This document shows, piece by piece, positions 23,541 to 61,727 of a DNA stretch of 64,000 bases. Within the stretch, counting starts at the first letter, position 1, and each line of letters opens with the position of its first letter. The notes beneath the pieces are model-generated. The model searched no databases and was not told where the DNA came from. It saw only the letters and a program-made list of their open reading frames with translations. Both the position numbers and the translations under genes were made by a program. Origin of the DNA: Mycobacteriales bacterium (GTDB lineage Bacteria; Actinomycetota; Actinomycetes; BP-191); contig DASTMB010000064.1 of assembly GCA_035714365.1 (NCBI GenBank), forward strand, positions 31,785 through 95,784, in the 5' to 3' direction.

Positions 23541-23915
23541 ATGGCGGGCGAGCGGGTCCTCGTCGTGGACGACGATGCCGTGATCCGGCAGCTCATCTGC
23601 GTCAACCTCGAGCTCGAGGGCTACGAGGTGCACACCGCGGAGGACGGCCAGGACGCGCTGGAGAAGATCCGGTCCGTCGACCCGGCCGTCGTGACCCTGG
23701 ACATCATGATGCCCCGGCTCGACGGCTGGGAGACCGCCGCCCGGCTGCGCAACGACCCGGACACCGCGCACGTGAAGGTGATCCTGCTCAGCGCCCGGGC
23801 GCAGGAGGCGGACCTGCGGCGCGGCCACGGGATCGGCGTGGACGCCTACCTCACCAAGCCGTTCGACCCGGACGACCTCGTGGAGGCGGTCCGGCGGCTC
23901 GCCGAGGGCCAGTAA
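23541..23915 (+). CDS. Single-domain (CheY-like) response regulator receiver protein
   Basis: MAGERVLVVDDDAVIRQLICVNLELEGYEVHTAEDGQDALEKIRSVDPAVVTLDIMMPRLDGWE...KVILLSARAQ...GVDAYLTKPFDPDDL. There is no output domain and no adjacent kinase. Confidence 0.85.
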   Translation: MAGERVLVVDDDAVIRQLICVNLELEGYEVHTAEDGQDALEKIRSVDPAVVTLDIMMPRLDGWETAARLRNDPDTAHVKVILLSARAQEADLRRGHGIGVDAYLTKPFDPDDLVEAVRRLAEGQ

Positions 23916-23994
23916 ACCGAGTCCGGTTCGAGACAGGAGTCGCGGCAGCGTGCGGCGAAGGGGACGAAACGCCCGTACTACGCACGGAGGACCG

Positions 23995-44138: not shown

Positions 44139-44291
44139 GTGCGCGTGGGTGTCGTCTACGTCAGTGCGGCCGTCGTCGCCGTCTGCGGCGTCGTGCGGTG
44201 GTGGCTGTACCTGCGGCTCTGCCGCCACGTGTTCGACCAGACGAAGGACCCGCAGGCGGTCGCGCGGGTGGCGCGGTCGGTGCGGCGGTGA
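44139..44291 (+). CDS. Possible small single-TM membrane protein (about 50 aa)
   Basis: GTG at 44139 or 44145 after GGGAG. V(R)VGVVYVSAAVVAVCGVVRWWLYLRLCRHVFDQTKDPQAVARVARSVRR. The only support is a hydrophobic helix followed by a basic tail. Confidence 0.3.
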   Translation: MRVGVVYVSAAVVAVCGVVRWWLYLRLCRHVFDQTKDPQAVARVARSVRR

Positions 44292-44394
44292 CGCCGGCCG
44301 CCCGGCCGTATCTGGTCACCATGGGCCATACCGGCGCGGACCGGGACGACGTAGCGTCGGTGAGTCACCTAGAGCACCGTGGGGGGTCGCGCGC

Positions 44395-47300
44395 ATGGCC
44401 GTTCGCCGCCGCGGGCTGCTCGCTGCGCTGGTGGCGGCGTTCCTGCTGCTCGGCGCGGCCCCCGCGACCGCGGCGCCGCCGGGCCGGCGGGTCTCCGGCA
44501 CGTACCGGCTGCTCGCGAAGGACGTGGTCGAGGGCGGCGGCCTGCGGCACGTCTACGAGGACGTGCTCGACACCGGCACCCGCATGCACCGGCTGCACCT
44601 GCCGCGCGGCCACGGGCTGCGCCCCGGCGACCGCGTGCTCGTCTCCGCCGACACGGCCGGTGACGGGAGCACGCTGAACGTCACGTCGTTCGCGCCGCTC
44701 GGCACGACGGCGGCGACCGCCACGACCGGCACGACGGACGTGCTGGTGGTGCTGGCGTACTGGACGGCGCCCGACTCGGTGACGCCGCAGCGGGCGTCGG
44801 ACCAGATCCTCGGCGACGACGACCGGTGGTTCCGCGAGGTGTCGTACGGCGCGGTCGGCCTGACCGGTGCGGTCACGCCGTGGCTGCGGATCCCGGCACC
44901 GGCCAACGGCCAGTGCTACGCGGGCGCGGACACGATCATGACCGGCGCGATCGACGCGGCCGGCCGGGCCGGGTACGCCGCGATCGGCTACGACCGGGTC
45001 GTCGTCTACTTCCCGCGCTGCACCGGCTCGGACACGAGCAACGTCGCCGGCTGGGCGTACGAGCCGGGCGCCCGCGTCTGGCTCAACGGGTACATGGACC
45101 GCCGCACGTCGGTGCACGAGCAGGGCCACAACTACGGCATGGGCCACGCCCGCGCGTACGCCTGCACGAACAACGGCGTCCGCGTCACGCTCGGCGGCAC
45201 CTGCGCGAGGTCGGAGTACGGCGACCCGTACGACGCGATGGGCCAGTCGTCGTACGCCGCCCACTTCGACGGCTACAACAAGTACGTGGCCGGCTGGCTC
45301 GGCACCCGGCGGCGCATCCTCACGACCTCGTCGTCGTCGTTCACGCTGCCGCCGTACGAGTCGGCGTCGGCGACGGCGCCGCAGGTCGTCGTCGCGAACT
45401 CGCCCACGCGCGGCTCGTACTGGCTCGAGTACCGGAGACCGGTCGGCTACGACGCGGCGCTGCCGGCGGGCGCGACCGGTGGCGTGCTGGTCCACCTGCG
45501 GGACACGGTCGTGGGCGTCGGCAACTACCTCCTCGACGGCACGCCGGGCGACGCGACGTTCGCGACGGCGGTGCTGCGCGCGGGCACGACGTGGACGGCG
45601 CCGGACGGCGTGCGCATCGCGGTCGGCAGCGCCACGTCCACGGGCATCGCGGTCAGCATCACCGGCGCCAGGCCGGAGCCGCAGGTGGCGACCGCGCCCC
45701 GGTCGTTCGCCGCGAGCGCGCGGGACATGGCGGTGCGGCTGACCTGGACGGCGCCGTCGTCCGACGGCGGCGCGGCGATCAGCGGCTACCGGGTCACGGT
45801 CGACCCGCCGCCGCCGGGGGGCGGCACCGGCGTCCTCGCCGCGAGCCCCAACGCCACCTCGCTGCTCGTCAGCGGCCTCGGCAACGGCACCACGTACACG
45901 TTCGAGATCCGCGCGCTCAACTCCGTCGGGCCGGGCGCGCCGGCCACCGCGCAGGCGGTCCCCGTCGTGCTGCCGCCGGTGGTGTCGATCACCTCGCCGG
46001 CCGACGGCGCGGCCCTCACCGGGCGGGTGACCGTCGTCGCGTCCGCCTCGCCGAACCCGCTCAGCGGCAGCGCGATCTCGCAGACCCGCCTCGTCGTCGA
46101 CGACCGGACCGTCGTGTACGGCTACGGCGCGCAGACGTCGTTCGAGTGGAACACCGGCACCGTCGCCAACGGCCGTCACCACGTCGAGGTCGTGGTGACC
46201 GACGCCAACTACCGCACCGCCGTCGCCGCCGTCGACGTGACGACCAGCAACCCGTTCCCGGTCGTCGCCGTCACCGCGCCGGCGGAGGGCACGACGTTCG
46301 ACGCCCCGCAGGTCGTGCTGGAGGCGGCGGCGTCGGTGCCGGAGGGCTCGACGGCGGCGATCCAGTCGGTGGCGTTCGAGGTCGACGGCTACCTGCGGGC
46401 GACCGTGTACTCCGCGCCGTACCGGATGACCTTCCCGACGATCGACAACGGCTGGCACTCGGTCGTCGCGGTCGCGACCGACACGAACGGCCTGACCGCG
46501 CGGTCCCGGCCGGTGTCGTTCGTCGTCTCGCACCCGCCGCCGACGGTGAAGATCACCTCCCCTGCCAACGACGCCGTCGTGCGCGGCACCAGCCTGACCA
46601 TCACCGCCGACGCGAGCGTCACCGCCAACGGCAGCGCGCTCGCCGAGGTGCGGTTCTGGGCCGGCTACCAGCCCATCGGTACCGACACCACCGCGCCGTT
46701 CACGGCGACGTGGGACATCAGCGGCCTCAGCGGCTCGGGCCGGGTGCAGGCCGAGGTCGTCGAGACGAGCGGCCGGCGCGCGACGACGTACCTCTCGGTG
46801 CGGATCGACAACGCGCTCCCGACGGCGACCCTGAACCTCACGTACAACCAGCCGTTCGACGCGAAGCCGATGACGCTGACCGGCACGGCGACCGCGCGGA
46901 CGGCGGGTGCCTCGGTGGCGCGAGTCGACCTCATGGTGGACAACGTCGCGGTGCCCGCGGAGGTGGCCGCCGACGGCACCTGGTCGGCGCCGTGGGACGC
47001 GACCGGCCGCTACGGCATCCACCGGGTGACGGTGGTCGCGTACGACTCCGCCGGGCTGCACTCGCCCACCCCCGTGTCGCAGTCGTTCCAGGTCGTGCGC
47101 CAGCCGCCCGCGGTCGTCTGGACGGCGCCGGAGGCCGGGTCCCTCGTGCCGGCCGGGACGGTGGACGTCGTCGCGTCGGCGACGCCCGGGACGTACGACA
47201 CGAGCACCGTGACGAGGATCTGCTTCCGCAAGACCATGCCGTGGTGGCAGTACGCGCCGGAGCTCGGCTGCGGCACCCTCGGCGACGACGGCCGGTACCA

Positions 47301-48255
47301 CCTCGCGTGGAACACCACGGCCGTGCCCGACGGGGCGTTCGCTCTGACGGCGGTGGTGTGGATGAGCGACGGCGCGACGTTCGCGGTGCCCGGCCCGACC
47401 GTGACGGTCGCGCGGCCGCCGCTCGCGCCGGAGGTCTACAGCGACGACGGCTTCGACGGCGACGCCGACCTCTGGTGGTCGACCGCGCCCTCCGCCGCGC
47501 CGGTGACGTCGTGGGTCGTCGCCGTGCCGGGGCGGGCACCGGTCACCGTCACCGAGCCGCGGGCCTACCTCACCGGGCTGGCGAACTGGCACACGTACGA
47601 CGTCGCCGTGAGCGCCGTCAACGCCATGGGCACCGGCCCGGCCACCCACGTCTCGGTCACGCCGGGGCTGCGCACGCGGATCGAGCTGACGTCGCAGCCG
47701 GCGCGCACGGTCGTCTACGGCAGCCGCGTGACGTTCGGCGCCGTCGTGTCGCGGCAGAAGGACGACCAGCCGGTGGCCGGCCGGACCGTCGAGCTCGTCG
47801 GCTGCCCGGTCGCCGGGCCGCCGTGCCCGGTCGTCGCCCGCGCGACCACCTCCGCGACGGGCATGGTCACCCTCTCCGCCGTGCCGCGCACGGGCACCGA
47901 CTACTACCTGCACGTGCCGGTGCAGGTCGCGATCGGCCAGTCGTACGTCTTCCCGCCACCGGTGTCGGTCTCGACCAAGGTGACCGGCACGTTCTCGGCC
48001 GGGCGGGTGCCGCTCGGCGCGACGTCGTACCTGCGCGGCTACGTCACGCCGGCGCGCACGGGCGGGTTCGTCTACCTCCAGCGGTACTACTCCGGCACCT
48101 GGCACAACGTCACGTACCGCACGATGAGCGCCACCGGCTACGTCTCGGTGCCGGTCAAGGTCGCGCGGGGGACGTACACGTACCGGCTCCGCTACGGCGG
48201 GGACGGCGGCCGCCTCCCCGGCGCCTCCCCCGCTCGAACACTCGTCGTGTACTAG
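44395..48255 (+). CDS. Large secreted metzincin-like metalloprotease (M11/gametolysin-like HExxHxxGxxH) with FN3 and multiple Ig-like domains
   Basis: ATG at 44395. Signal peptide MAVRRRGLLAALVAAFLLLGAAPATAAP. HEQGHNYGMGH at 45115-45147. An FN3 domain (RLTWTAPSSDGGAAISGYRV...TYTFEIRALNSVGPG). About 6 Ig-like repeats of the form V.ITSPA.GA...G.V.V.A.AS, then a second FN3. Confidence 0.7.
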   Translation: MAVRRRGLLAALVAAFLLLGAAPATAAPPGRRVSGTYRLLAKDVVEGGGLRHVYEDVLDTGTRMHRLHLPRGHGLRPGDRVLVSADTAGDGSTLNVTSFAPLGTTAATATTGTTDVLVVLAYWTAPDSVTPQRASDQILGDDDRWFREVSYGAVGLTGAVTPWLRIPAPANGQCYAGADTIMTGAIDAAGRAGYAAIGYDRVVVYFPRCTGSDTSNVAGWAYEPGARVWLNGYMDRRTSVHEQGHNYGMGHARAYACTNNGVRVTLGGTCARSEYGDPYDAMGQSSYAAHFDGYNKYVAGWLGTRRRILTTSSSSFTLPPYESASATAPQVVVANSPTRGSYWLEYRRPVGYDAALPAGATGGVLVHLRDTVVGVGNYLLDGTPGDATFATAVLRAGTTWTAPDGVRIAVGSATSTGIAVSITGARPEPQVATAPRSFAASARDMAVRLTWTAPSSDGGAAISGYRVTVDPPPPGGGTGVLAASPNATSLLVSGLGNGTTYTFEIRALNSVGPGAPATAQAVPVVLPPVVSITSPADGAALTGRVTVVASASPNPLSGSAISQTRLVVDDRTVVYGYGAQTSFEWNTGTVANGRHHVEVVVTDANYRTAVAAVDVTTSNPFPVVAVTAPAEGTTFDAPQVVLEAAASVPEGSTAAIQSVAFEVDGYLRATVYSAPYRMTFPTIDNGWHSVVAVATDTNGLTARSRPVSFVVSHPPPTVKITSPANDAVVRGTSLTITADASVTANGSALAEVRFWAGYQPIGTDTTAPFTATWDISGLSGSGRVQAEVVETSGRRATTYLSVRIDNALPTATLNLTYNQPFDAKPMTLTGTATARTAGASVARVDLMVDNVAVPAEVAADGTWSAPWDATGRYGIHRVTVVAYDSAGLHSPTPVSQSFQVVRQPPAVVWTAPEAGSLVPAGTVDVVASATPGTYDTSTVTRICFRKTMPWWQYAPELGCGTLGDDGRYHLAWNTTAVPDGAFALTAVVWMSDGATFAVPGPTVTVARPPLAPEVYSDDGFDGDADLWWSTAPSAAPVTSWVVAVPGRAPVTVTEPRAYLTGLANWHTYDVAVSAVNAMGTGPATHVSVTPGLRTRIELTSQPARTVVYGSRVTFGAVVSRQKDDQPVAGRTVELVGCPVAGPPCPVVARATTSATGMVTLSAVPRTGTDYYLHVPVQVAIGQSYVFPPPVSVSTKVTGTFSAGRVPLGATSYLRGYVTPARTGGFVYLQRYYSGTWHNVTYRTMSATGYVSVPVKVARGTYTYRLRYGGDGGRLPGASPARTLVVY

Positions 48256-48840: not shown

Positions 48841-49953
<1,113 letters not shown>

Positions 49954-49990
49954 TCACCCGGTCGGGTCTTCAGTGTCCGACTACGGGTAG

Positions 49991-50019
49991 TTGACACGCT
50001 CGCTACACAGTGTCACAGT
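49991..50019 (+). promoter_or_regulatory. Putative promoter: -35 TTGACA, 17-nt spacer, -10 CACAGT
   Basis: The same architecture recurs at 51011-51039 and, in weaker form, at 52281-52310. Confidence 0.4.
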
Positions 50020-50044
50020 CACTCGCTGTAACTACCCACTTCGG

Positions 50045-50135
50045 GGAAGCGACGATCCGCGGCCGTATCTCGGTCACCGGCCAGGCCGCGGGGAGCAAGT
50101 GGTGAGACCGGCCCCGGACTCGAGAGGAGTCCGTC
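50045..50135 (+). promoter_or_regulatory. Conserved 5' leader element, copy 1 (core 50045-50119 plus Shine-Dalgarno-sequestering hairpin 50116-50132)
   Basis: GGAAGCGACGATCCGCGGCCgtatctCGGTCACCggccaGGCCGCGGGGAGCaAGTGGTGAGACCGgCCcCGGACtcgagagGAGTCC. It is shared with copies 2 and 3. An in-frame TGA at 50103-50105 shows it is not coding. Confidence 0.6.
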
Positions 50136-51014
50136 ATGGTCGTCCGGTCTGCCCGCTCCACGGTCGCGGCGTTCGCCGCCACCGTCCTGCTGCTCGCCGC
50201 GCTCGTCACGCTGCTCACCCGCCCCGCCTCGGCCGCGCAGGCCACCGGCGGCCCGGCGCGCAGCGACAAGGCCGCCGCCGCGCAGGAGCAGAAGGGCCAC
50301 GGCAAGCCGAGCCCGGCCGCCACGACCTCCCCGCAGCCGAAGTCCAACGCCGACATGAACAAGGGCGGCGCCAACAACGGCGGCGACTGCGGCGCCTACT
50401 GCTCCACCCGCGACGGCTCGCCGTCCGGGAACGGCAACGGCAAGGGCGAGGCCAAGGGCAAGCCGTGCGCCGGCTGCGTCGGCAAGGCCGACAACAAGAA
50501 CCCGCCCGGCCAGCAGCCCGACGGCACCGACCACAACGCCGGCTACGAGTGCGACCGCAACCACGGCATCGGCCGGACCAACCCGGCGCACACCGGCTGC
50601 ACCCCCGCCCCGACCGTCCAGCCGACCGTGACGCCGACCACCCCGCCGCCGTGCGTGCCGACCGAGACCGAGCCGTGCGGCACGCCCACCGCGTGCGTGC
50701 CGACCGAGGCGGAGCCGTGCGGCACGCCCACCCCGTGCGTGCCGGCCGAGGGCGCCCCGTGCGGGAACCCGACCCCGACGCCGTCGGTGCTCCCCACCAC
50801 CCTGACCCAGACCCCCGCCCCGGAGACGGCCACGCCGCCCGCCCAGGTCAAGGGCGTCAAGCTCGTCCGCCCGGCCGCCACGGCCCCGAAGGTGCTCGGC
50901 GGCCGCCTGCCGAAGACGGGCTCGCCGGTGCCGGTGGCGCTGCTGCTGCTGGTGGGCTTCGGCACCATCGCGCTGGGTATCACTGTCACTGTCGCGACGC
51001 CCGCGTCGCGTTGA
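50136..51014 (+). CDS. LPXTG (LPKTG) cell-wall-anchored surface protein with a Cys-rich domain and a Cys-containing stalk repeat
   Basis: Signal peptide MVVRSARSTVAAFAATVLLLAALVTLLTRPASA. GDCGAYCS...KPCAGCVGKADNKNPPGQ...GYECDRNHGIGRTNPAHTGC. Three copies of CVPTExEPCGTPT. LPKTG followed by a hydrophobic tail. Confidence 0.8.
   Translation: MVVRSARSTVAAFAATVLLLAALVTLLTRPASAAQATGGPARSDKAAAAQEQKGHGKPSPAATTSPQPKSNADMNKGGANNGGDCGAYCSTRDGSPSGNGNGKGEAKGKPCAGCVGKADNKNPPGQQPDGTDHNAGYECDRNHGIGRTNPAHTGCTPAPTVQPTVTPTTPPPCVPTETEPCGTPTACVPTEAEPCGTPTPCVPAEGAPCGNPTPTPSVLPTTLTQTPAPETATPPAQVKGVKLVRPAATAPKVLGGRLPKTGSPVPVALLLLVGFGTIALGITVTVATPASR
50651..50776 (+). repeat. 3 x 42-nt tandem repeat encoding CVPTE(T/A)EPCG(T/N)PT(A/P/P)
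   Basis: The units lie at 50651-50692, 50693-50734 and 50735-50776. Units 1 and 2 are nearly identical and unit 3 has diverged. Confidence 0.9.
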
Positions 51015-51039
51015 CGTAACACAGGCTTACTGTCACAGT
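51011..51039 (+). promoter_or_regulatory. Putative promoter: -35 TTGACG, 17-nt spacer, -10 CACAGT (the -35 overlaps the upstream stop codon)
   Basis: TTGACGtaacacaggcttactgtCACAGT. It contains the palindrome ACTGTcACAGT. Confidence 0.4.
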
Positions 51040-51084
51040 TCGTGATAAGTACGACACGATCCGAAGGGGATCGTGACGTTCCGA

Positions 51085-51181
51085 GGAAGCGACGAGCCGC
51101 GGCTTTGTTCGGTCACCAGCCGGCCGCGGGGAGCGAGTGGTGAGACCGGCCTCGGACTGGTTCCCGGGAGGGAAAGTCCAC
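51085..51181 (+). promoter_or_regulatory. Conserved 5' leader element, copy 2 (core 51085-51157 plus Shine-Dalgarno-sequestering hairpin 51154-51179)
   Basis: GGAAGCGACGAGCCGCGGCtttgttCGGTCACCagccgGCCGCGGGGAGCgAGTGGTGAGACCGgCCtCGGACTggTTCCCgggaGGGAAAGTCC. Confidence 0.6.
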
Positions 51182-52096
51182 ATGTCGGCCTTCACGCGAC
51201 GTGCTCGCTACCTGACGTTCGCCGGTCTCGCGACGATCGGCCTCGCGGCCGCGGCGCAGCTCGCGGTGACGCCCGCGGCGACCTCCGTCGAGACGTACAC
51301 CGTGCCGCTCCACCAGGACACGCCCATCCAGAACTCCACCTACTCCGAGCAGGGCGACTGCCCGCTCTCGCCGTCGCAGTGGGGCTGGCACTTCGTGCTG
51401 CCCGGCCACGACGCGGAGTTCGTCTCGCTGACGGCGACGTTCGAGACGGCCGGCGAGGTCGAGGCGACGATCGGCGAGCCGACCGCGCAGCACGCCTACG
51501 TCTACACGGCGACCGACGACACGCTGCTCTCGGCGACGGCGGAGGTGACCGGCGGCGAGGTCGAGTTCTTCAACCTCTCGCACGTCTGCGCGGGCGGTGG
51601 CACGACCAGCGAGACGCCGACCCCGAGCGTGTCGGCCTCGGCGACCAAGACCCCCTCGGCCACCCCGAGCGAGACGCCCAGCGAGACCCCGAGCGAGACC
51701 CCGTCGGTGACGCCCACCGCCGAGGTGAGCGCGACCGAGACGGCGACCACGCCGCCGCCGACCACCGTGCCGCCGACGACGGTCCCGCCGACGTCCGAGA
51801 GCGCCACGCCGACCGCCGAGGTCAGCGCGACCGAGACCGAGACGGCGACGCCGACCGGCACCTCCGAGGTCCTGCCGACCCGCCTCACCAACACCCCGAC
51901 CCCGTCGGCCTCCGTCCAGGGCGTCAAGATCGTCCAGCCGCCGGCGGTCCTCCCGCGCCGCCTGCCCTCGACCGGCACCCCGGTCCCGGTGGCCGTCCTG
52001 CTGCTCCTCGGCTTCGGCATGGTCGCTGCCGGTGTCGTGACCACCGTCGCCGGTGAGCCCCGCACCGCGAGCGCCGACGGCCGTCACCGCCGCTAG
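51182..52096 (+). CDS. LPXTG (LPSTG) cell-wall-anchored surface protein
   Basis: ATG at 51182. Signal peptide MSAFTRRARYLTFAGLATIGLAAAAQLAV. A globular domain of about 130 aa, a Thr/Pro/Ser/Glu-rich stalk (SETPSETPSETPS, duplicated ATPTAEVSATET), then LPSTG, a hydrophobic segment and a basic tail. Confidence 0.8.
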   Translation: MSAFTRRARYLTFAGLATIGLAAAAQLAVTPAATSVETYTVPLHQDTPIQNSTYSEQGDCPLSPSQWGWHFVLPGHDAEFVSLTATFETAGEVEATIGEPTAQHAYVYTATDDTLLSATAEVTGGEVEFFNLSHVCAGGGTTSETPTPSVSASATKTPSATPSETPSETPSETPSVTPTAEVSATETATTPPPTTVPPTTVPPTSESATPTAEVSATETETATPTGTSEVLPTRLTNTPTPSASVQGVKIVQPPAVLPRRLPSTGTPVPVAVLLLLGFGMVAAGVVTTVAGEPRTASADGRHRR

Positions 52097-52134
52097 CGCA
52101 CACCGCGCGTAGCCGCGCGGACCCGTACCACCGC

Positions 52135-52167
52135 GAAAGGCCCGTCCCCTCCCGGGACGGGCCTTTC
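52135..52167 (+). terminator. Intrinsic-terminator-like hairpin (14-bp stem GAAAGGCCCGTCCC/GGGACGGGCCTTTC)
   Basis: It lies 39 nt after the stop codon. The 3' arm ends in TTTC. Confidence 0.65.
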
Positions 52168-52280
52168 GTGTACGCACCGTCACGTCCCGCGGCCGTTCGG
52201 TGATCACGCGGGACCCCGGAATGTCCTGTCTCGCAGCGATTCCGGACTCTCGGCCGGGCGAAGATGGTCCGAAGCGACCA

Positions 52281-52310
52281 TTGCCGCCCCCGGACACGCT
52301 GCGTCACGGT
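52281..52310 (+). promoter_or_regulatory. Putative promoter: -35 TTGCCG, 18-nt spacer, -10 CACGGT
   Basis: This is a weaker version of the two upstream promoters. It is followed by the inverted repeat GTCACGGT-N12-ACCGTGAC. Confidence 0.3.
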
Positions 52311-52356
52311 CGTGGAGCGCTCACCGTGACGACCGTCACGTGTCCGTGAGCGCCGG

Positions 52357-52458
52357 GGAAGCGAAGATCCGCGGCCGTCCTTGGACCGGTCACCGTACGC
52401 CGGGCCGCGGGGAGCGAGTGGTGAGACCGACCTCGGACCGTCCTCAGGAAGGCGTCCG
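52357..52458 (+). promoter_or_regulatory. Conserved 5' leader element, copy 3 (core 52357-52438 plus Shine-Dalgarno-sequestering hairpin 52435-52457)
   Basis: GGAAGCGAAGATCCGCGGCCgtccttggacCGGTCACCgtacgccgGGCCGCGGGGAGCgAGTGGTGAGACCGaCCtCGGACcgtcctcaggaaggcGTCC. Confidence 0.6.
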
Positions 52459-55400
52459 ATGTCGCATCGCAGGTTCCGTCCCCTCGCCGCACTCGTCGCG
52501 TTCGTGGTCGCGCTCGTCTGGCTGCCGCTGCTGGCCGGCCCGGCGAGCGCCGCCGGCCCGGTCCTCGTGCCGGACACGACCATCAACGGCTGCAACGGCG
52601 TCCTCCCGACGCCGGGCAGCGAGAACACCCACAAGCGGCTCGACCCGTCGTTCCCGAGCGACTTCAACCCGGGCGGCGTCGTCGGCTACATCGTCGACTT
52701 CCCGGTGTCGGCCGCCGACGTCGGCGGCGACTTCGAGATCACCGACTGCGTCTACGTCGACCCGCCCGGCGGCGGCACCGACGCGCCGATCGCGAAGTAC
52801 TTCGTGCACTTCGTGCCCAACGCCGAGGACTTCCACCTCCAGTTCGCCGTGCCGATCCCGGCGAACACGCCGCTCGGCTCGCAGTTCTGCAACTACGTCA
52901 AGACCACGGCCTCGCCGAGCGCCTCGCAGGCCAGCAACCGCAAGGCCGGCCCGGCCTGCTTCACCGTCGGCGGCGGCCTGCGCATCGAGAAGCGCACCGG
53001 TAGCACGACCGGCCCGCTGCTCCCCGGCGCGTCGTTCAGCGTCGTCTGCTCGCCGACGACCACGCAGCCGCCGACGATCATCACCGGCCTGTCGAACCAG
53101 AGCCACACCAACGCCAACGGCACCGTGTCGGCGACCGGCGTCGCGGACGACGGCACCATCGCGATCAACGGGCCCAGCGGCACGCCGTGCGTCGTCACCG
53201 AGACGGCGGCACCGGCCGGGTACCTGCTCGACGCGACGCCGCGCAACCTGGTCATCCCGGTCGGCGCCAGCCAGACCATCAACGTCTTCGTCAACCACCA
53301 GCAGGGCTCGCTCACCGTCACCAAGCACGCGGTCGGCGCGGGCGGCACGTTCCACTTCACCGTCTCCTGCGACGACGGCGAGACGTACGCGCCGTTCGAC
53401 CTGACCGTCGCCGCGGGCGCCACCGGCAGCCACCTGGTCAGCGACGCGATCGTCGTCGGCACCGAGTGCACCGTCGCCGAGACCGCGAACGCGCTGTTCT
53501 CGACGACCAGCTCGCCGGTCGACGGCACCGTCACGATCGACGCCGACGGCGAGACGGTCGCGTTCACGAACACGCGCCTCACCGGCTCGCTCGTCGTCAC
53601 CAAGACCTCGAACGAGGACGGCACGTTCCACTTCGACGTCGACTGCGACGGCACCGCGTACGACACGACGCTCGACATCACCACCGCGAGCGGCGCCGGC
53701 GACGCGCGCATCGACGGCATCCCGACCGGCACGAGCTGCACGGTCAGCGAGCAGTCGAACCCGCTGTTCTCCTCCGTCGTCGTCCCGGCCGGCGGCACCG
53801 TGACGATCGCCACCGGCGACACCACGGTGGCGTTCGCCAACACCCGCCTCACCGGCTCGCTCGTCATCACCAAGTCGGCGGACGTCAACGGCACGTTCAC
53901 GTTCGACGTCGAGTGCACCGGCACCGCCTACGACGCGACCGGCGTCACGATCACCACGACCGGCGGCAGCGGCTCGTACACGATCCCGAGCGTGCCGACC
54001 GGCACCGTCTGCACCGTCACCGAGCGGTCCGACGCCCACTGGACGACGCAGGTCGTGCCGGCCGACGGCACCGTGACGATCGCCACCGGCGACAACACGG
54101 TCGCGTTCACCAACACCCGCGTCCGGGGCGCGCTGAGCATCACCAAGTCGAGCGACGTGGACGGGACGTTCACGTTCGACGTCGACTGCTCGGACGACGC
54201 CTACGACGCGTCGAACGTCTCCATCACCACCGGCGGCTCCGGCTCGGCGTCGATCTCGGGCATCCCGACCGGCGTCACCTGCACCGTCACCGAGGACGCC
54301 GACCCGCACTTCACGGTCACCGTCGTCCCCGCGGACGGCACCGTCACGATCGACGCGAACGGCGAGACGGTGGCGTTCAGCAACGTCCGCGTCCGCGGCT
54401 CGCTGGTCGTGACCAAGGCGATCGTCGACGAGAGCCCGAACGCGGGCCTCGCGGCGTTCACCTTCCACGTGACCTGCGACGGGACCGCGCTGCCCGACTT
54501 CGAGCTCGGCACGCAGGCCGGCCTGGCGCTCTCGAAGACCATCGAGGGCATCCCGACCGACCAGGTCTGCACGGTCACCGAGGACCACGACCCGACCTGG
54601 TCGACCGTCGTCACGCCCACCGGCGGGACCGCGACGATCGGCACCGAGCCGGTGACGGTGGCGTTCACGAACACCCGGCAGTTCACCGACACGTCGATCA
54701 CGAAGTCCGCCGACCCGGTCTCCGGCACGGCGGTCACCGACGGCGACACGATCGAGTACACCGTCCACTACGCGAACGACGGGAACGTCGCCGACGAGAT
54801 CACCATCACCGACGCGATCCCGGCCGGTACGACGTACGTCGACGGCTCCGCGAGCGACGGCGGCACCCTGGCCGGCGGCACGCTGAGCTGGCACCTCACG
54901 GCCGGGCCCGGCACCTCCGGGGACGTGTCGTTCTCGGTCACGGTCGACGACGCACTGCCGGACCCGACCACGGTCGTCAACCAGGCGGTCCTTGAACAGG
55001 TCGGGCCGAAGATCACCCGGTCCAACAAGACCGAGCACCCGGTCGCGCACGTCAAGGTCGTGAAGTCGGTCGACAAGACCAGCGCCGCCTACGGCGACGT
55101 CCTGCTCTACACGCTGTCGGTCACCAACCCGTCGGCGGCCGACCTGACCGGCGTCGTGGTCACCGACCCGCTGCCGAAGGGCGTGACGTTCGTCGGCGCC
55201 AGCAACGGCGGCACCTGCGACAGCCCCTGCACGACGATCACCTGGCCGGCGCGCTCGCTGGCGGCGGGCGGGGCGTTCGACGTGACGTTCCAGGCGCGGA
55301 TCGTCCGCCCGGCCGCGGCGGCCGACGGCGCGATCCCGGCGGGCGTCATCGAGAACAGCGGCGCGGTCGACAGCACCGAGACCCCGAAGGTGCCGTCGAA

Positions 55401-55587
55401 CAAGGTCGTCACCAAGGTCACCGCGGTCGAGGGCACGAAGTTCATCAAGCCCCCGGTCCTCCCCCAGACCGGCGGCCCGATCTCCGACGCCGTCGCCCTG
55501 GCCCTCGGCCTGCTCCTCGCGGGCGCGGGACTGACTTTCGGTACGAGCTGGCGGGCCCGCCTCGCGAAGGCGGCCGGAGAGGAGTGA
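52459..55587 (+). CDS. Large LPXTG (LPQTG) surface protein/adhesin: SpaA/Cna-B-like domain, five tandem DUF5979-like repeats, two DUF11-like repeats
   Basis: ATG at 52459. Signal peptide MSHRRFRPLAALVAFVVALVWLPLLAGPASA. TETAAPAGYLLD. Five repeats of about 95 aa, of the form L(T/R)GSL.(V/I)TK......GTF.F.V.C.G......C TV(T/S)E....... V.F.NTR. Then ITKSADPVSGTAVTDGDTIEYTV and VVKSVDKTSAAYGDVLLYTLSV. LPQTG followed by a TM segment. Confidence 0.8.
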   Translation: MSHRRFRPLAALVAFVVALVWLPLLAGPASAAGPVLVPDTTINGCNGVLPTPGSENTHKRLDPSFPSDFNPGGVVGYIVDFPVSAADVGGDFEITDCVYVDPPGGGTDAPIAKYFVHFVPNAEDFHLQFAVPIPANTPLGSQFCNYVKTTASPSASQASNRKAGPACFTVGGGLRIEKRTGSTTGPLLPGASFSVVCSPTTTQPPTIITGLSNQSHTNANGTVSATGVADDGTIAINGPSGTPCVVTETAAPAGYLLDATPRNLVIPVGASQTINVFVNHQQGSLTVTKHAVGAGGTFHFTVSCDDGETYAPFDLTVAAGATGSHLVSDAIVVGTECTVAETANALFSTTSSPVDGTVTIDADGETVAFTNTRLTGSLVVTKTSNEDGTFHFDVDCDGTAYDTTLDITTASGAGDARIDGIPTGTSCTVSEQSNPLFSSVVVPAGGTVTIATGDTTVAFANTRLTGSLVITKSADVNGTFTFDVECTGTAYDATGVTITTTGGSGSYTIPSVPTGTVCTVTERSDAHWTTQVVPADGTVTIATGDNTVAFTNTRVRGALSITKSSDVDGTFTFDVDCSDDAYDASNVSITTGGSGSASISGIPTGVTCTVTEDADPHFTVTVVPADGTVTIDANGETVAFSNVRVRGSLVVTKAIVDESPNAGLAAFTFHVTCDGTALPDFELGTQAGLALSKTIEGIPTDQVCTVTEDHDPTWSTVVTPTGGTATIGTEPVTVAFTNTRQFTDTSITKSADPVSGTAVTDGDTIEYTVHYANDGNVADEITITDAIPAGTTYVDGSASDGGTLAGGTLSWHLTAGPGTSGDVSFSVTVDDALPDPTTVVNQAVLEQVGPKITRSNKTEHPVAHVKVVKSVDKTSAAYGDVLLYTLSVTNPSAADLTGVVVTDPLPKGVTFVGASNGGTCDSPCTTITWPARSLAAGGAFDVTFQARIVRPAAAADGAIPAGVIENSGAVDSTETPKVPSNKVVTKVTAVEGTKFIKPPVLPQTGGPISDAVALALGLLLAGAGLTFGTSWRARLAKAAGEE

Positions 55588-55596
55588 GTTGACACG

Positions 55597-55634
55597 CTGA
55601 CGGCCCGGCGGCCCGCGAGGCGCCGGGCCGTCAG
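55597..55634 (+). terminator. Stem-loop with a 14-bp perfect stem
   Basis: CTGACGGCCCGGCG gcccgcgagg CGCCGGGCCGTCAG, starting 10 nt after the stop codon. Confidence 0.6.
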
Positions 55635-55766
55635 CCTGTCCGGGGTCAGGCGGCGGTGGAGAGGGAAGCGGCGGCCGGGGAGCGGCGGCCGATCCCGCGA
55701 CTGAAGGGAGCGGCGCGCAGCGCCGCGGAATCTAGCGGGAGCGGTTGCCGCTCCCCGGGCGCCGCG

Positions 55767-55949
55767 TCAGTGGGTGTGCGCGGCGACAAGCACGGCGAGC
55801 GTGACGAGGAGCACGGCGAGGGCGGCGACCCAGTCCGGCACGACCGGGGCGGCGGCGTGCAGCCGGGCGCGGGCGGCGGCGCAGGCGGGGCAGCGGGCGT
55901 CCACGACGTGCCCCGCGCAGGAGGCACAGACCAGGTGCTCGCAGCACAC
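55767..55949 (-). CDS. Possible small zinc-ribbon plus single-TM protein (60 aa)
   Basis: GTG after [66 protein letters not shown]. It has a CxxC-x8-CxxC motif followed by a TM helix. It lies divergent from ftsE. Confidence 0.3.
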
Positions 55950-56028
55950 GCGCGAACGCTCCCTCACCGACGGCCGTAGACTCGGAAAGGAACCCTGTAC
56001 CCCGACACCCCCGAGGGGCAAACCCCGC

Positions 56029-56718
56029 ATGATCCGGCTCGACCACGTCACCAAGGTCTACCCGACGGCGACCAAGCCGGCGTTGAACGACGTCAGCGTC
56101 GACGTGGACAAGGGCGAGTTCGTCTTCCTGGTGGGCTCGTCCGGCTCGGGGAAGTCGACGTTCCTGCGGCTGCTGCTCAAGGAGGAGACGCCGACGACGG
56201 GCAGCGTGTTCGTCGCGGGGAAGGACCTGGCGCGGCTGTCGCACTGGAAGGTGCCGACGTTGCGGCGGCAGATCGGCTGCGTGTTCCAGGACTTCCGGCT
56301 GCTGCCGAACAAGACCGTCTTCGAGAACGTCGCGTTCGCGCTCGAGGTGATCGGCAAGCCGAAGCACTCGATCGACAAGGTCGTGCCGGAGGTGCTGGAC
56401 CTCGTCGGCCTGGACGGCAAGGCGGGGCGGCTGCCGGACGAGCTGTCGGGCGGTGAGCAGCAGCGGGTGGCGATCGCGCGGGCGTTCGTCAACCGGCCGA
56501 TGATCCTCATCGCGGACGAGCCGACGGGCAACCTCGACCCGACGACGTCGTTCGAGATCATGCGGCTGCTGGAACGCATCAACCGGACCGGGACGACGGT
56601 CGTCATGGCCACGCACGACGCGAACATCGTGGACTCGATGCGCCGGCGCGTGGTCGAGCTCGAGGGGGGTCGCGTGGTGCGCGACCAGGCCCGCGGCGTC
56701 TACGGCTACTCGAAGTAA
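56029..56718 (+). CDS. ftsE: Cell-division ATP-binding protein FtsE
   Basis: [12 protein letters not shown]...[17 protein letters not shown]...[33 protein letters not shown]. Confidence 0.95.
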
Positions 56719-56728
56719 GGAAGCGTTC

Positions 56729-57604
56729 GTGCGAGCTCAGTTCGTGCTGTCCGAGATCGGGATCGGTCTGCGGCGCAACATCACCATGACCGTCGCCGTC
56801 ATCGTCATCACCGCGGTGTCGCTGACGATGTTCGGGTCGGCGTTGATGATGCGCAACCAGGTCAACGGCATGAAGGACTACTGGTACGGCAAGGTCGAGG
56901 TCTCGATCTTCCTCAAGAAGGACGTGACGCAGGACCAGCGGGACCAGCTCCGGACCGAGCTCGAGTCGATGCCGGACGTCGAGCGCGTCTACTACGAGAG
57001 CAAGGACGACGCCTGGAAGCGGTTCAAGGAGCAGTTCAAGGACGCGCCGGACGTCGTGGCGAACACCGACCCGGACGTGCTGCCGGAGTCGTTCCGGGTG
57101 AAGCTGAAGGACCCGCGGAAGTTCGAGGTCGTGAGCAGCGCCTTCGCGGACCGGCCGGGTGTGGTGAACGTCTACAACCAGAAGGAGGTCCTGAAGAAGT
57201 TCTTCAAGGTCCTCAACGGCATCCGCTTCGCGATGCTGCTCTTCGCCAGCCTCAGCCTCGCCGCCGCCGCCGTGCTGATCGGGATCACGGTGCGGGTGGC
57301 GGCGTTCAGCCGGCGCCGGGAGACCGGCATCATGCGCCTCGTCGGCGCCTCGAACCTCTACATCCAGCTGCCGTTCCTGCTGGAGGGCGTGCTGGCGGGC
57401 GTCGCCGGCGCGCTGATCGCGACGGTGCTGCTGTCGGCGGCGCAGTGGGGGCTGATCAACAAGACGTTGCGGCCGGCGATCCAGGCGTTCCCGTGGACGG
57501 GCTGGAACCAGTTCTGGGTGATCGTGCCGATCCTCGTGCTCACGGGTGTGGCGCTCGCGGGCGCCTCGTCGTTCTGGACCCTGCGCAAGTACCTGCGGGT
57601 GTAG
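56729..57604 (+). CDS. ftsX: Cell-division permease-like protein FtsX
   Basis: 291 aa, GTG start. It has the FtsX topology and an extracellular domain, and follows ftsE. Confidence 0.9.
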   Translation: MRAQFVLSEIGIGLRRNITMTVAVIVITAVSLTMFGSALMMRNQVNGMKDYWYGKVEVSIFLKKDVTQDQRDQLRTELESMPDVERVYYESKDDAWKRFKEQFKDAPDVVANTDPDVLPESFRVKLKDPRKFEVVSSAFADRPGVVNVYNQKEVLKKFFKVLNGIRFAMLLFASLSLAAAAVLIGITVRVAAFSRRRETGIMRLVGASNLYIQLPFLLEGVLAGVAGALIATVLLSAAQWGLINKTLRPAIQAFPWTGWNQFWVIVPILVLTGVALAGASSFWTLRKYLRV

Positions 57605-57651
57605 GTGACGTGTGGTTCTCTTGTGACTGATGTGACGTCACGGGAGGTGCC

Positions 57652-58860
57652 ATGCGGGTCGGGCGGGTACGGCGGCTGGCCGCCGTCGCGCTGCTCGGCG
57701 CCCTGCTGCCGCTGACGCCCGCGCGCGCCGACGACCCCCATGCGCAACGCCGCGCCGTCCAGGCCCGGCTGGCGACCACCAAGGACGACCTGGACGAGGC
57801 GAGCGCCGTCGTCCGCGAGGCCGCCGCCGCGCTGTCGGCGACCGCCGCCGCCCTGCCGGGGGCACGGACGCGGCTGGCCGAGGCGGAGGGCCGGCTGTCC
57901 GCCGCTCAGGCCGCCGCCGGGGCGAGCGCCCGGGCCGCCGAGGCCGCGCGGCGCGACCTCGCCGCCGCCACCGCGTCGTACGCCGCCGCCGAGACCGCGC
58001 TGGGCGCCGCGCGCGAACGGGCGGGCGACGTCGCCAGGATGCTCTACATGACCGGCTCGGCGGGCCTCGCCGCCGCGCTGCTCGACGCGCGCACGCCCGC
58101 TGACCTGGCCGCGCGGGCGGCGTACACGCACGCGATCCTCGCCGACGGCGACGCCCGCGTCCGCGCCGCCGGCGACGCCCGGGTCGCGCTCGCCAACGCC
58201 GCCAGCCTGCTCGCCGCCCGCCGCGCCGCCGTCGAGGCCCGCGACGCCGAGGCACGGGCCGCGCTGGCCCGCGTCACCACCCTCGCCGAGGCCGCGCGGG
58301 CCGCCGCCGCCGAGGTCGAACGCCACGTCGCCGCCCGCCGCGCCGCCCTCGCCGTCGCCGCCCGCGAACGCGCCGCCGACCTCGCCCGCTACCGCGCGCT
58401 CGAGGCCGAGTCGGCGCGGCTCGCCGCGCTGATCCGCCGCCTCGCCGCGCGCCGCCCCAGCACCGTCCGAGTGTCCGTCTCCGGGCTGCTCTGGCCGACG
58501 CCGGGGCCGGTCACGAGCGGGTTCGGCTGGCGGATCCACCCGATCTACGGCTACCGCCGGTTCCACGCGGGCGTCGACATCGGCGCGCCCACCGGGCAGC
58601 CGATCGTCGCCGCGCTCGGCGGCGTCGTCGTCACCGCCGGCCCGCTCGGCACGTACGGCAACCTCGTCGTCGTCGACCACGGCAACGGCTTCGCCACGGC
58701 GTACGGCCACCAGTCCCGCGTGCTCGTCCGCGTGGGGCAGCGCGTGGCGCGCGGGGAGCGCATCGGGCTGGTCGGCGCGACCGGCGCGGCCACCGGCCCG
58801 CACCTGCACTTCGAGACCCGGGTCGACGGCGACCCGGTCGACCCCCTCCGTTACTTCTAG
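57652..58860 (+). CDS. Secreted coiled-coil M23 family metallopeptidase (EnvC/PcsB-like candidate FtsEX partner)
   Basis: Signal peptide, then a long Ala-rich coiled coil, then an M23 domain HAGVDIGAPTGQPIVA...GNLVVVDHGNGFATAYGH...ATGPHLHFE. Confidence 0.85.
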   Translation: MRVGRVRRLAAVALLGALLPLTPARADDPHAQRRAVQARLATTKDDLDEASAVVREAAAALSATAAALPGARTRLAEAEGRLSAAQAAAGASARAAEAARRDLAAATASYAAAETALGAARERAGDVARMLYMTGSAGLAAALLDARTPADLAARAAYTHAILADGDARVRAAGDARVALANAASLLAARRAAVEARDAEARAALARVTTLAEAARAAAAEVERHVAARRAALAVAARERAADLARYRALEAESARLAALIRRLAARRPSTVRVSVSGLLWPTPGPVTSGFGWRIHPIYGYRRFHAGVDIGAPTGQPIVAALGGVVVTAGPLGTYGNLVVVDHGNGFATAYGHQSRVLVRVGQRVARGERIGLVGATGAATGPHLHFETRVDGDPVDPLRYF

Positions 58861-58870
58861 ACTGCTGGGC

Positions 58871-60049
58871 GTGACCAACGCCCGGACGCGCCGCCGCCGC
58901 GCGCTGCTCGCGACCGCGGGCACGCTCACGGTCGCGGCGGCGTTCGTGTTCGGCTTCCTCGCCGGGCGCGCGGGCCGCACCGGGCCGGGCGACGGGGCGC
59001 CGTCCGGCGTCGTCGCCGAGGCCGCCGAACGCCTGCGCGGCAGCGCCGCCCGCGAGGTCAGCCCGCACGAGCTGGACGAGGCGGCGATCCGCGGCATGCT
59101 CGCCGCGCTCGGCGACAAGTACGCCACCTACTACGACACCAGCGACTACGCGCAGTTCCAGCGGCTGCTGGACGGCCGCTACTCCGGCGTCGGACTCTGG
59201 CTCGGCCGCGACCCCGACGGCAGCGTCGAGGTCACCAGCGTCGTCCCCGACTCGCCCGCCGCCGACGCCGGGCTGCGCGTCGGCGACCGGCTGGTCGACG
59301 TGGCGGGGGAGGCGGTCGACGGGCTGCCCGTCGCCGAGATCGTGCGCCGCATGCACGGCGACGTCGGCACCGCCGTCGCCGTCACCGTCCGCCGCGCCGA
59401 CGCCGTCCGCACCGTGCGGCTGCGCCGCGCCGACCTGGTCACCGCCGACGTCACCAGCGACCTGCTCGAGAGCAACGTCGGCCGCATCCGCGTCGCGGCG
59501 TTCACCCGCGGCACCGGGCGCGAGGTACGGGCCGCGCTGGCGCGGCTGCGTTCGCGCAAGGTCGCCGGCGTCGTGCTCGACCTGCGCGGCAACCCGGGCG
59601 GCCTGCTGGACGAGGGCGTCGACGCGGCGTCAGCGTTCCTCGACAAGGGCGTCGTCGTCAGCTACCGCGGCCGCGGCGTGGACGAGAAGACGTACGATGT
59701 CGTCGGCCGCGGCGACACCGCCACCCCGCTCGTCGTGCTCGTCGACGCCGGCACCGCCAGCGCCGCCGAGGTCGTCGCGGGCGCGTTGCAGGACCACAAC
59801 CGCGCGCTCGTCGTCGGCAGCCGCACGTACGGCAAGGGGTCGGTGCAGCAGCCGCTCGTGCTCTCCGACGGCTCCGCCATCGAGCTCACCGTCGCGCGCT
59901 ACGTCACGCCGTCGGGGCGTTCCGTCGAGCAGGTCGGCATCACGCCGGACGTCGACCTGCCCGCCGGCTACGACGCCGCCGCGGCGCTGCGCCGCGCCGT
60001 CGAGGTGCTCTCCGGGACCGTCGCCAGCGTCGCGGTCCCCCGCGGCTGA
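58871..60049 (+). CDS. S41 family C-terminal processing peptidase (Ctp) with a PDZ domain
   Basis: GTG start. PDZ domain ([27 protein letters not shown]). [31 protein letters not shown]. Confidence 0.85.
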
Positions 60050-60525
60050 TGCCCAAGGAGACCGGGCGGAAGCTCATCGCCCAGAACAAGAAGGCGCGCC
60101 ACGACTACGCCATCGAGGACGTCTACGAGGCCGGGCTGGTGCTCACCGGCACCGAGGTGAAGTCGCTGCGCGCCGGCCGCGCCAGCCTGGTCGACGCCTA
60201 CGCCACCATCAAGGACGGCGAGGCCTGGCTGCACAACGCGCACATCCCCGAGTACACGCTCGGCACCTGGACCAACCACCAGCCGCGCCGCGTCCGTAAG
60301 CTGCTGCTGCACCGCGAGGAGATCGCCAAGCTCGTCGGCAAGACCAAGGAGAGCGGCCTCGCGCTCGTGCCGTTGCAGCTCTACTTCAAGGACGGGCGCG
60401 CCAAGGTGGAGATCGCGCTCGCCCGCGGCAAGAAGGCGTACGACAAGCGGCAGTCGCTCGCCACCCGCGACGCCGCCCGCGAGGTCGCCCGCGAGATGGG
60501 CCGGCGGGCGAAGGGCCGGGAGTAG
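60049..60525 (+). CDS. smpB: SsrA-binding protein SmpB
   Basis: [32 protein letters not shown]...LLLHREEI...[24 protein letters not shown]. Confidence 0.95.
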
Positions 60526-60614: not shown

Positions 60615-61727
60615 ATGTCCGTTTCGGGCCGAGCACTACCGGGGATGGGGGCGGAGATGACTTCCGCAGACGACGCGCGACCCGTGACGTGGAGCGCGCA
60701 CGGGATCTCCCTCGCCACCAGGCCCGAGTTCGCGGCCGCCTCCGCGTCCACCCTCCGCCTGCTGCACCAGCAGCTCGGCCTCGACCTGTGGATGGTCACC
60801 CGCATCGACGCCGACGACCTCGTCGTCCTCGACTGCCTGGACTACGCCTACCGGCTCCGCCCCGGCGACGTGCTGCCCTGGTCCGCCAGCCTCGACTGGC
60901 GGATGGTCAACGGCCAGGGCCCCCGCGTCGCGCCCCGCATCGCCGACGTCCCCGCCTACGCCACCGCCGGCCTCACCCAGGTCATGCCCGTCGGCGCCTA
61001 CGTCGGCGTCCCCCTGCTGATCGACGGCCACGTCTTCGGCACCCTCAGCGGCCTCGACCCGCTGCCCCGCGACGACACCCTCGTCGCGGCGCTGCCGCTG
61101 GTCGAGACCCTCGCCGGGCTGCTGACCTCCGTCATCTCGCTCGAGCTGCGGTCCACCCAGGTCGTCCGCCGCGCCGAACGCGCCGAGGTCGAGGCCCACG
61201 TCGACCCCCTCACCCAGCTCGGCAACCGCCTCGCCTGGAGCAAGGTCCTGGTCGAGGAGGAGGCCCGCTGCCGCCGCTACGGCCGCCCCGCCTGCGTCAT
61301 CTCCGTCGACCTCGACGGGCTGAAGCGCCGCAACGACACCGAGGGCCACGACGCCGGCGACGCGCTGCTGCGGTCCGCCGCCCTCGTGCTGCGCCGCGTC
61401 TCCCGCATGTGCGACCAGGTCGCCCGCGTCGGCGGCGACGAGTTCGCGGTCCTCGCGGTCGAGGCGTCCGAGCTCGAGGGGCGCGCGCTGCTCGACCGGA
61501 TCGCGCACGCCTTCGCCACGGCGGGCGTGGAGGCGTCGCTCGGCATGGCGGTGCGGGAGGGTCACTCGACGCTCGGCGAGACGTGGAAGGCCGCCGACGC
61601 CGCCATGTACCGGCACAAGCGCCGCCGCCTCCAGGACCGCGTCTCCGCCGCCCTCGCCGCCCCCGAGGTGGCGCCCCAGGTCGTGCGCCACATCGAGGTG
61701 CCGGACTACTCCGCCGCGGGTTCCTGA
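60615..61727 (+). CDS. GAF-GGDEF diguanylate cyclase (start uncertain: 60615, 60645 or 60657)
   Basis: GAF-like N-terminus (LDLWMVTRIDADDLVVLD...YVGVPLLIDGHVFGTLSGLD). GGDEF domain DPLTQLGNRLAW...SVDLDGLKRRNDTEGHDAGDALL...ARVGGDEFAVL. Confidence 0.85.
   Translation: MSVSGRALPGMGAEMTSADDARPVTWSAHGISLATRPEFAAASASTLRLLHQQLGLDLWMVTRIDADDLVVLDCLDYAYRLRPGDVLPWSASLDWRMVNGQGPRVAPRIADVPAYATAGLTQVMPVGAYVGVPLLIDGHVFGTLSGLDPLPRDDTLVAALPLVETLAGLLTSVISLELRSTQVVRRAERAEVEAHVDPLTQLGNRLAWSKVLVEEEARCRRYGRPACVISVDLDGLKRRNDTEGHDAGDALLRSAALVLRRVSRMCDQVARVGGDEFAVLAVEASELEGRALLDRIAHAFATAGVEASLGMAVREGHSTLGETWKAADAAMYRHKRRRLQDRVSAALAAPEVAPQVVRHIEVPDYSAAGS

Follow-up and report, generated by a model that had tools for sequence, protein, structure and literature searches.

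Introduction

Clostridial riboswitches of the class II type for cyclic di-GMP (c-di-GMP) act mainly through transcription termination, and one of them stands 5' of the type IV pilus operon of Clostridioides difficile. In the same species, riboswitches of this class precede the genes for the sortase-substrate adhesins CD2831 and CD3246, whose production goes up at high c-di-GMP (PMC11477304), and in Paraclostridium they occur in tandem 5' of surface-anchor genes (PMC9481103). Here we describe three leaders in a 64,000-nucleotide (nt) stretch of DNA from a Mycobacteriales bacterium (GenBank assembly GCA_035714365.1, contig DASTMB010000064.1, positions 31,785 to 95,784 of the forward strand), the whole of which we call the window. 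Each leader ends in a hairpin that holds the Shine-Dalgarno (SD) sequence of a gene for a putative sortase-anchored surface protein. We consider it very likely that these hairpins are the expression platforms of c-di-GMP-II-GAG riboswitches controlling translation of the gene behind each.

The Rfam family of the GAG variant, RF03169, is said to stem from the survey of variant riboswitches that Weinberg et al. published in PNAS in 2017. Its model covers the aptamer only, and the window hairpins adjoin it as candidate expression platforms. Nothing structural differs between the model and the window copies, which have the same closing helix P1, inner helices P2 and P3, pseudoknot and core. No description of the expression platforms of the GAG variant was found in the literature that we read, where papers give the family name only.

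Compared with canonical c-di-GMP-II riboswitches of Clostridia, the window copies share membership of clan CL00127 and the presence of sortase-anchored surface-protein genes downstream, but they score best with the GAG model and not with the canonical one. Their platform is an SD hairpin without a U-tail, unlike the termination seen in Clostridia, and single aptamers stand before three successive genes, whereas the clostridial tandem aptamers share one leader. A further likeness is to translational ON riboswitches that sequester the SD, among them the add adenine riboswitch of Vibrio vulnificus, where a ligand-stabilised P1 and an SD-containing helix compete for one strand at similar stabilities. 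The aptamer fold and the ligand of add differ from those considered here, and in the window the SD lies partly in a loop and the stem abuts the start codon. The RNA family has its place in the catalogue and platforms that sequester the SD are a standard type; the window copies are new instances from a metagenomic actinobacterial contig.

Aptamers and hairpins in the three leaders

All three leaders matched RF03169 over the full length of the model (positions 1-86 of 86), with the scores given in Table 1, against a curated gathering score of 40 bits. At each of the three sites RF03169 was the best-scoring member of clan CL00127, and the sole further Rfam match in the window was a tRNA. The aptamers are laid out as P1, P2 and P3, with the P3 loop pairing to the 3' joining strand as a pseudoknot. 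P3 (CCGCGGCC/GGCCGCGG) is intact in every copy, as are the pseudoknot strands CGGUCRCC (P3 loop) and GGYGAGACCG (3' joining strand). Between copies, P1 carries a compensatory change at one position, from G-C to A-U or G-U (GGGG/CCCC versus GAGG/CCUC), while its outer pairs and the first pair of P2 are non-canonical in the folds of the window copies. The conserved core GGGGAGCNAGUGGYGAGACCG is common to these copies and to RF03169. The variant is defined by three bases (G, A, G) at positions that contact the ligand in the parent class. In the window, no other model of the clan scores as high as the GAG one, and GGYGAGACCG is an unvarying part of the core.

An earlier note on this DNA, made from the letters of the sequence, had placed a hairpin at the end of each leader, and its coordinates and sequences for the three copies proved exact (Table 1). 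RNAfold returned hairpins 1 and 2 as the minimum-energy fold of both the local segments and the whole leaders, and for copy 3 it returned a close variant of hairpin 3 with an 8-nt loop. The stems are short, at 6-10 base pairs (bp). In all three copies the purine-rich SD is divided between the loop and the 3' arm, as the note had described. To call the SD buried is right in that the hairpin holds it and too strong in that roughly half of each SD sits in the small loop rather than in the helix. The distance from hairpin to ATG, put at 2-4 nt in the note, has to be corrected to 3, 2 and 1 unpaired nt in copies 1-3, or to 2, 2 and 0 nt when an extra C-G pair is counted. Covariation between the copies, also claimed there, is weakly supported by pairs that change: reading past the bulges, the sixth pair goes from U-A to G-C and the seventh from C-G to U-A, in three sequences only. 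The base pairs of CGGAC/GUCCG are invariant, however, and the interiors are of unequal length and do not fit a column-wise alignment. Given the three platforms and one relative, RNAalifold returned no consensus pairs, owing to the unequal loop lengths.

The conserved CGGAC segment, which the note had read as the end of an upstream core, falls inside the 3' strand of aptamer helix P1. More generally, the 5' arms of the hairpins (50115-50121, 51154-51158 and 52434-52440) lie inside the P1 3' strands, so that P1 and the SD hairpin are mutually exclusive. The two alternatives are nearly equal in predicted stability. For copies 1, 2 and 3, respectively, the P1 duplex was predicted at -11.2, -12.9 and -10.4 kcal/mol and the SD hairpin at -11.5, -12.8 and -8.4 kcal/mol, and blocking the P1 3' strand left -1.2, -6.9 and -1.7 kcal/mol of structure over the SD. 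In unconstrained folds, the SD hairpin was present in all three leaders.

Stability against background

We compared the stability of the hairpins with that of 6000 random segments of the same length drawn from this DNA, which is 74% G+C. Against this background hairpins 1, 2 and 3 ranked in the top 0.6%, 4.7% and 26%, and dinucleotide shuffling gave z-scores of -2.2, -0.7 and -1.5. Folds of whole leaders were no more stable than those of their shuffles. Judged one at a time, hairpin 1 is distinctive, hairpin 2 borderline and hairpin 3 unremarkable. What argues against chance is the recurring position of the hairpins relative to the aptamer and the ATG, together with the comparison across the family.

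Homologous riboswitches

A pattern scan with the conserved core, limited to one genome per species, yielded 120 loci, and a covariance model derived from the aptamers of the three leaders identified about 108 homologous aptamers in other genomes. Most belong to Acidimicrobiia, Nitriliruptoria, Frankiales and Mycobacteriales-like metagenome-assembled genomes (MAGs) and Acidothermaceae, with a few in Coriobacteriia and Chloroflexi. RF03169 was the best family at each of 18 loci re-scanned with Rfam (18/18, 47-74 bits). One pseudoknot pair is A-U in 73 of the roughly 108 homologues and G-C in 31, with 4 exceptions. Several loci resemble the window in having two or three riboswitch-gene units in succession (e.g., L044).

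For 93 homologues, an SD and a start codon lay within 90 nt of the aptamer, and these formed the testable set. The start of the P1 3' strand stood a median of 38 nt from the start codon. In the minimum-energy folds of 83% of the set, at least 4 bases of the interval from -16 to -4 paired with the homologue's own P1 3' strand. We then used a chimera test, which presupposes no particular structure and in which the region comprising linker and SD was fused to the P1 3' strand of the same riboswitch or, for comparison, to those of other members of the family. Stabilisation was greater with own strands (mean z = -1.05, Wilcoxon p = 1.9e-10), and the effect persisted after dereplication to 72 clusters (mean z -0.90, 76% of values negative, p = 2.4e-7). 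Window copies 1, 2 and 3 had z values of -4.7, -1.4 and -1.3. The chimera test replaced a plain duplex test of the P1 3' strand against 64 nt of own or foreign downstream sequence (-12.8 versus -11.4 kcal/mol), in which the difference was small and the window copies were unremarkable. That test was insensitive because its target was long and G+C-rich and because its cut-off clipped short hairpins.

Arm sequences vary widely across the family while pairing is kept, as in GUGGU/ACCAC (Longivirga), CCUGUCCC/GGGAUAGG (many Acidimicrobiia), CCCGCCCC/GGAGGCGG and CCCACUCC/GGAGUGUGG. The comparison of orthologous leaders that the earlier note had envisaged thus returned, for most of the roughly 100 homologues, the same arrangement with different arms. 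In about eight cases, from Coriobacteriia, Chloroflexi and related MAGs, a U-tailed terminator takes the place of the SD hairpin (e.g., GAGACCGGCCC...GGGCCGGUCUUUUU). The 5' arm of this terminator is the aptamer's own GAGACCGRCC 3' strand, which implies the same ON polarity. In most homologues the P1 3' strand seems to serve as an anti-SD within the riboswitch itself, and a minority seem to rely on terminators. A metagenome scan for close relatives sharing the CGGAC base found one true relative (L125); four further hits were chance matches inside genes and were rejected.

Copy 1 has a possible extra feature. Its pseudoknot strand AGACCGG (50105-50111) is perfectly complementary to CCGGUCU in codons 4-6 (50145-50151, 7 bp), and the outer stem so predicted also encloses the AUG in the ligand-free (unconstrained) fold. 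As a feature of the family, an outer stem between GAGACCGG and codons 2-6 was rejected (mean z = +0.13, p = 0.11, 89 homologues). Among the window copies it is confined to copy 1 (z = -2.0), and it recurs in a few homologues, such as L007:7444.

Proposed switch and rival explanations

We propose that, without ligand, CGGAC(U/C) would pair with GUCCG just 5' of the ATG, and that the SD, held in a small loop and a stem abutting the start codon, would be bound poorly by the 30S subunit. With ligand, presumably c-di-GMP or a close relative, the pseudoknotted core and P1 would be stabilised, and the hairpin would lose its 5' arm and collapse. The SD and AUG would then be accessible, making the element an ON switch at translation initiation. 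In this way three sortase-anchored surface proteins would come under one signal, through three independent units that each seem to have a promoter of their own. Three parts of this scheme are inferences: that the switch is of the ON type, that it controls translation, and what its ligand is.

Several observations weigh against this proposal. Hairpin 2 reaches only the top 4.7% of background segments and hairpin 3 only the top 26%, and all of the structures are predicted thermodynamically, in RNA whose G+C content of 74% makes stable helices common. In the chimera test, copies 2 and 3 show no more than modest specificity for the P1 strand of the same riboswitch. Strands of other family members also pair with the SD regions, at 4.6 bases on average versus 5.7 for own strands, since every P1 3' strand starts with a pyrimidine run (CCY) that suits any SD. 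In copy 2, the inner stem UUCCC/GGGAA is independent of P1 and still holds the GGG of the SD when P1 is enforced; relief of the SD there would thus be partial. In copies 1 and 3, RNAfold still pairs the SD weakly with downstream codons when the aptamer is imposed on the fold. Lastly, no experimental report on the ligand of the GAG variant was found in the searchable literature, which did not cover the defining survey.

Some of these observations would also be expected if the hairpins were incidental or constitutive structures of G+C-rich leaders, which may dampen translation without any switching while the riboswitch is inactive or acts otherwise. The background ranks of hairpins 2 and 3 fit such a reading, as do the shuffle z-scores of copies 2 and 3, the ordinary stability of whole leaders and the fair pairing of unrelated P1 3' strands with SD regions. 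We nonetheless regard it as improbable, given that three paralogous leaders and 83% of the 93 homologues have the hairpin at the same place with respect to P1 and the ATG, that own-strand pairing remains significant after dereplication, that P1 and the hairpin are predicted to be close to isoenergetic, and that terminator-type homologues employ the same aptamer strand. Those same homologues raise the question of whether the window hairpins act on transcription, as a terminator lacking a U-tract, a pause site or a control on exposure to Rho, with read-through as the regulated step. Some family members clearly have intrinsic terminators formed from that strand, U-tract-poor terminators have been proposed for Actinobacteria (a disputed proposal), and untranslated leaders are natural Rho targets. 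Yet the terminating homologues have obvious U-tails, whereas no U-run follows any of the three hairpins and a terminator scan found none there. Stems of 6-10 bp, with the SD inside them and no more than 1-3 nt between their end and the ATG, have the geometry of translational control, and a transcriptional role for them seems doubtful.

Two other explanations accept translational control and differ in its agent or its sign. The earlier note had suggested that the expression platform works together with either an aptamer or a site for protein binding. The former option was borne out by three matches to RF03169, a family that the note had not recognised, and by the shared strand, and nothing in the analysis supports the latter. 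GGA or GGGA in the loops and an identical stem base in the three copies would suit a site for a translational repressor of the CsrA or ribosomal-protein-leader type, but the identical base is already explained as the aptamer's P1 3' strand and its complement. Across homologues neither arm nor loop sequences are conserved and only pairing and a purine-rich SD persist, which is unlike a sequence-specific protein site; nor does a candidate regulator gene adjoin the units. We hold a protein site to be very unlikely. The remaining reading reverses the switch, with ligand binding favouring the SD hairpin and lowering expression. Its direction is, here as in our proposal, a matter of prediction, and some SD pairing is still predicted by RNAfold with the aptamer enforced. 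The hairpin's 5' arm is, however, supplied by the P1 3' strand, so a ligand-stabilised P1 would remove the hairpin; terminator-type relatives have this same polarity, and the C. difficile adhesins behind class II riboswitches rise at high c-di-GMP (PMC11477304). An OFF switch would therefore be very surprising.

Surface-protein genes and their neighbourhood

Table 1. Positions of the riboswitch-gene units, nearby features and selected homologous loci. Positions are those of the window, except where a locus is named.
Feature	Position	Strand	Description
Aptamer 1	50036-50122	+	RF03169, 74.1 bits, E = 5e-13; 105.5 bits with covariance model built from window aptamers
Aptamer 1, P1 strands	5' 50036-50046; 3' 50112-50122	+	
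Aptamer 1, pseudoknot strands	50071-50078; 50101-50110	+	CGGUCACC (P3 loop); GGUGAGACCG (3' joining strand)
Aptamer 2	51076-51160	+	RF03169, 67.5 bits, E = 2.6e-11; P1 5' 51076-51086, P1 3' 51150-51160
Aptamer 3	52348-52441	+	RF03169, 64.4 bits, E = 1.6e-10; P1 5' 52348-52358, P1 3' 52431-52441
Hairpin 1	50116-50132	+	GGACUC-gagag-GAGUCC; with extra C-G pair CGGACUC-gagag-GAGUCCG, 50115-50133
Hairpin 2	51154-51179	+	GGACU-gg-UUCCC-ggga-GGGAA-AGUCC; outer stem GGACU/AGUCC, inner stem UUCCC/GGGAA, loop GGGA
Hairpin 3	52435-52457	+	GGAC-c-G-u-CCU-cagga-AGG-C-GUCC; with extra C-G pair CGGAC.G.CCU-cagga-AGG.C.GUCCG, 52434-52458
SD of copy 1	50122-50129	+	GAGAGGAG
SD of copy 2	51166-51174	+	GGGAGGGAA
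SD of copy 3	52447-52453	+	AGGAAGG
Gene 1	50136..51014	+	292 amino acids (aa): signal peptide, Pro/Thr-rich region, LPKTG sorting signal, hydrophobic tail; no Pfam domain
Gene 2	51182..52096	+	304 aa: signal peptide, Thr/Pro-rich region, LPSTG sorting signal; no Pfam domain
Gene 3	52459..55587	+	1042 aa: signal peptide, SpaA, DUF5979 (five stretches), DUF7927, DUF11, LPQTG sorting signal
Promoter-like element, unit 1	49991..50019	+	TTGACA, 17-nt spacer, TGT-CACAGT (extended -10-like); candidate, read by eye
Promoter-like element, unit 2	51011..51039	+	TTGACG, 17-nt spacer, TGT-CACAGT; overlaps gene 1 stop codon; candidate, read by eye
Promoter-like element, unit 3	52281-52310		TTGCCG, 18-nt spacer, CACGGT; candidate, read by eye
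Terminator-like hairpin 3' of gene 2	52139..52166	+	GGCCCGUCCC-cuccc-GGGACGGGCC, then UUU; putative, read from the letters
tRNA	23398-23469	-	Rfam match
prfB	48841-49953		
prfB to smpB run	48841-60525		prfB, ftsE, ftsX, M23 peptidase, S41 peptidase, smpB
Diguanylate cyclase gene	60615-61727	+	GAF-GGDEF
GAF-domain protein gene	9521-11173	+	
Large secreted-looking proteins	44149-48255; 23782-27963	+	
T2SSF-family gene	40691-41551		Tad/type II secretion protein F
Riboswitches 5' of bldD	L011:1017-1115	-	
	L023:752-855	-	
	L053:2563-2662	+	
	L084:3395-3505	-	
	L088:436-533	+	
	L031:2937-3041	-	
	L097:1832-1935	+	
	L025:5422-5530	+	
	L073:4046-4161	+	
Acidimicrobiia riboswitches with short open reading frame	L036:7568-7649	+	
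	L054:1027-1108	-	
	L090:623-704	-	
	L013:4877-4958	-	
	L026:2832-2913	+	
	L012:3250-3331	+	
	L068:7806-7887	-	
	L045:182-263	-	
	L078:7300-7381	-	

As shown in Table 1, each of the three genes encodes a signal peptide and an LPXTG-type sorting signal, and the product of gene 3 looks like a wall-anchored adhesin or a pilin-like protein. The ATG starts at 50136, 51182 and 52459 agree with independent gene calls on two public assemblies of the same DNA, a Joint Genome Institute (JGI) metagenome contig (115 kb) and a Logan assembly, as do the product lengths of 292, 304 and 1042 aa. The C-terminal regions of genes 1 and 2 are alike (...VKGVKLVRP...LPKTGSPVPVALLLLVGFG versus ...VQGVKIVQP...LPSTGTPVPVAVLLLLGFG), so leader and gene appear to have been duplicated together. 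Similar products recur behind the homologous riboswitches: 28 of 74 complete downstream open reading frames (ORFs) end in an LPXTG-type signal, and 63 of the 93 start like secreted proteins.

A promoter-like block recurs 5' of each unit, which suggests three separate transcription units, and the repeated TGTCACAGT could also be an operator. A simple scan for consensus promoters and terminators reported nothing relevant at the units and did not detect the promoter-like blocks. It also missed the terminator-like hairpin 3' of gene 2 because the U-run there is short; between genes 1 and 2, no terminator-like hairpin was visible.

The three units sit between prfB and the genes ftsE, ftsX, an M23 peptidase, an S41 peptidase and smpB, and they look like an insertion into this run. 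Just after smpB, about 5 kb downstream of the cluster, lies a gene for a GAF-GGDEF diguanylate cyclase, and the window encodes a second GAF-domain protein elsewhere. Upstream of the units are genes for two very large secreted-looking proteins, one with Big_7, fn3 and a weak Peptidase_M66 match (below the Pfam cut-off) and the other with Peptidase_M6 and CARDB, as well as a T2SSF-family gene.

Ligand and downstream genes in the wider family

The repeated leaders would be explained if one signal, probably c-di-GMP, switched on three wall-anchored surface proteins in this uncultured high-G+C actinobacterium, and the analysis records how the GAG variant would couple to translation. Circumstantial evidence points to a ligand within c-di-GMP signalling, in the form of the LPXTG proteins, the nearby GGDEF enzyme and the BldD orthologues described below. 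There is a smaller chance that the GAG variant responds to a different cyclic dinucleotide or a related nucleotide, that it defines an actinobacterial regulon at the RNA level (sortase-anchored proteins plus BldD in Frankiales-like genomes), or both. Because we found no report of a validated ligand, the compact units, if indeed of the ON type, could serve as test constructs or reporters for finding it.

BldD is a c-di-GMP receptor protein and a master developmental regulator. In Frankiales and Mycobacteriales-like MAGs, an orthologue of about 162 aa is encoded directly 3' of an RF03169 aptamer (47-57 bits; Table 1). The protein matches PDB entries 4oaz, 4oay and 2ewt, which we take to be BldD, with E of about 1e-36, and it keeps the RGD-x8-RQED motif. 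Our literature search found no paper linking bldD to a riboswitch.

In Acidimicrobiia, an ORF of 26-29 codons stands directly 3' of some copies of the riboswitch, typically reading M..ETT.VVWG...R..CVGG... (Table 1). The region contains two G+C-rich hairpins, and about 115 nt downstream there follow another strong SD and a longer ORF; it could represent a small peptide or a second RNA element.

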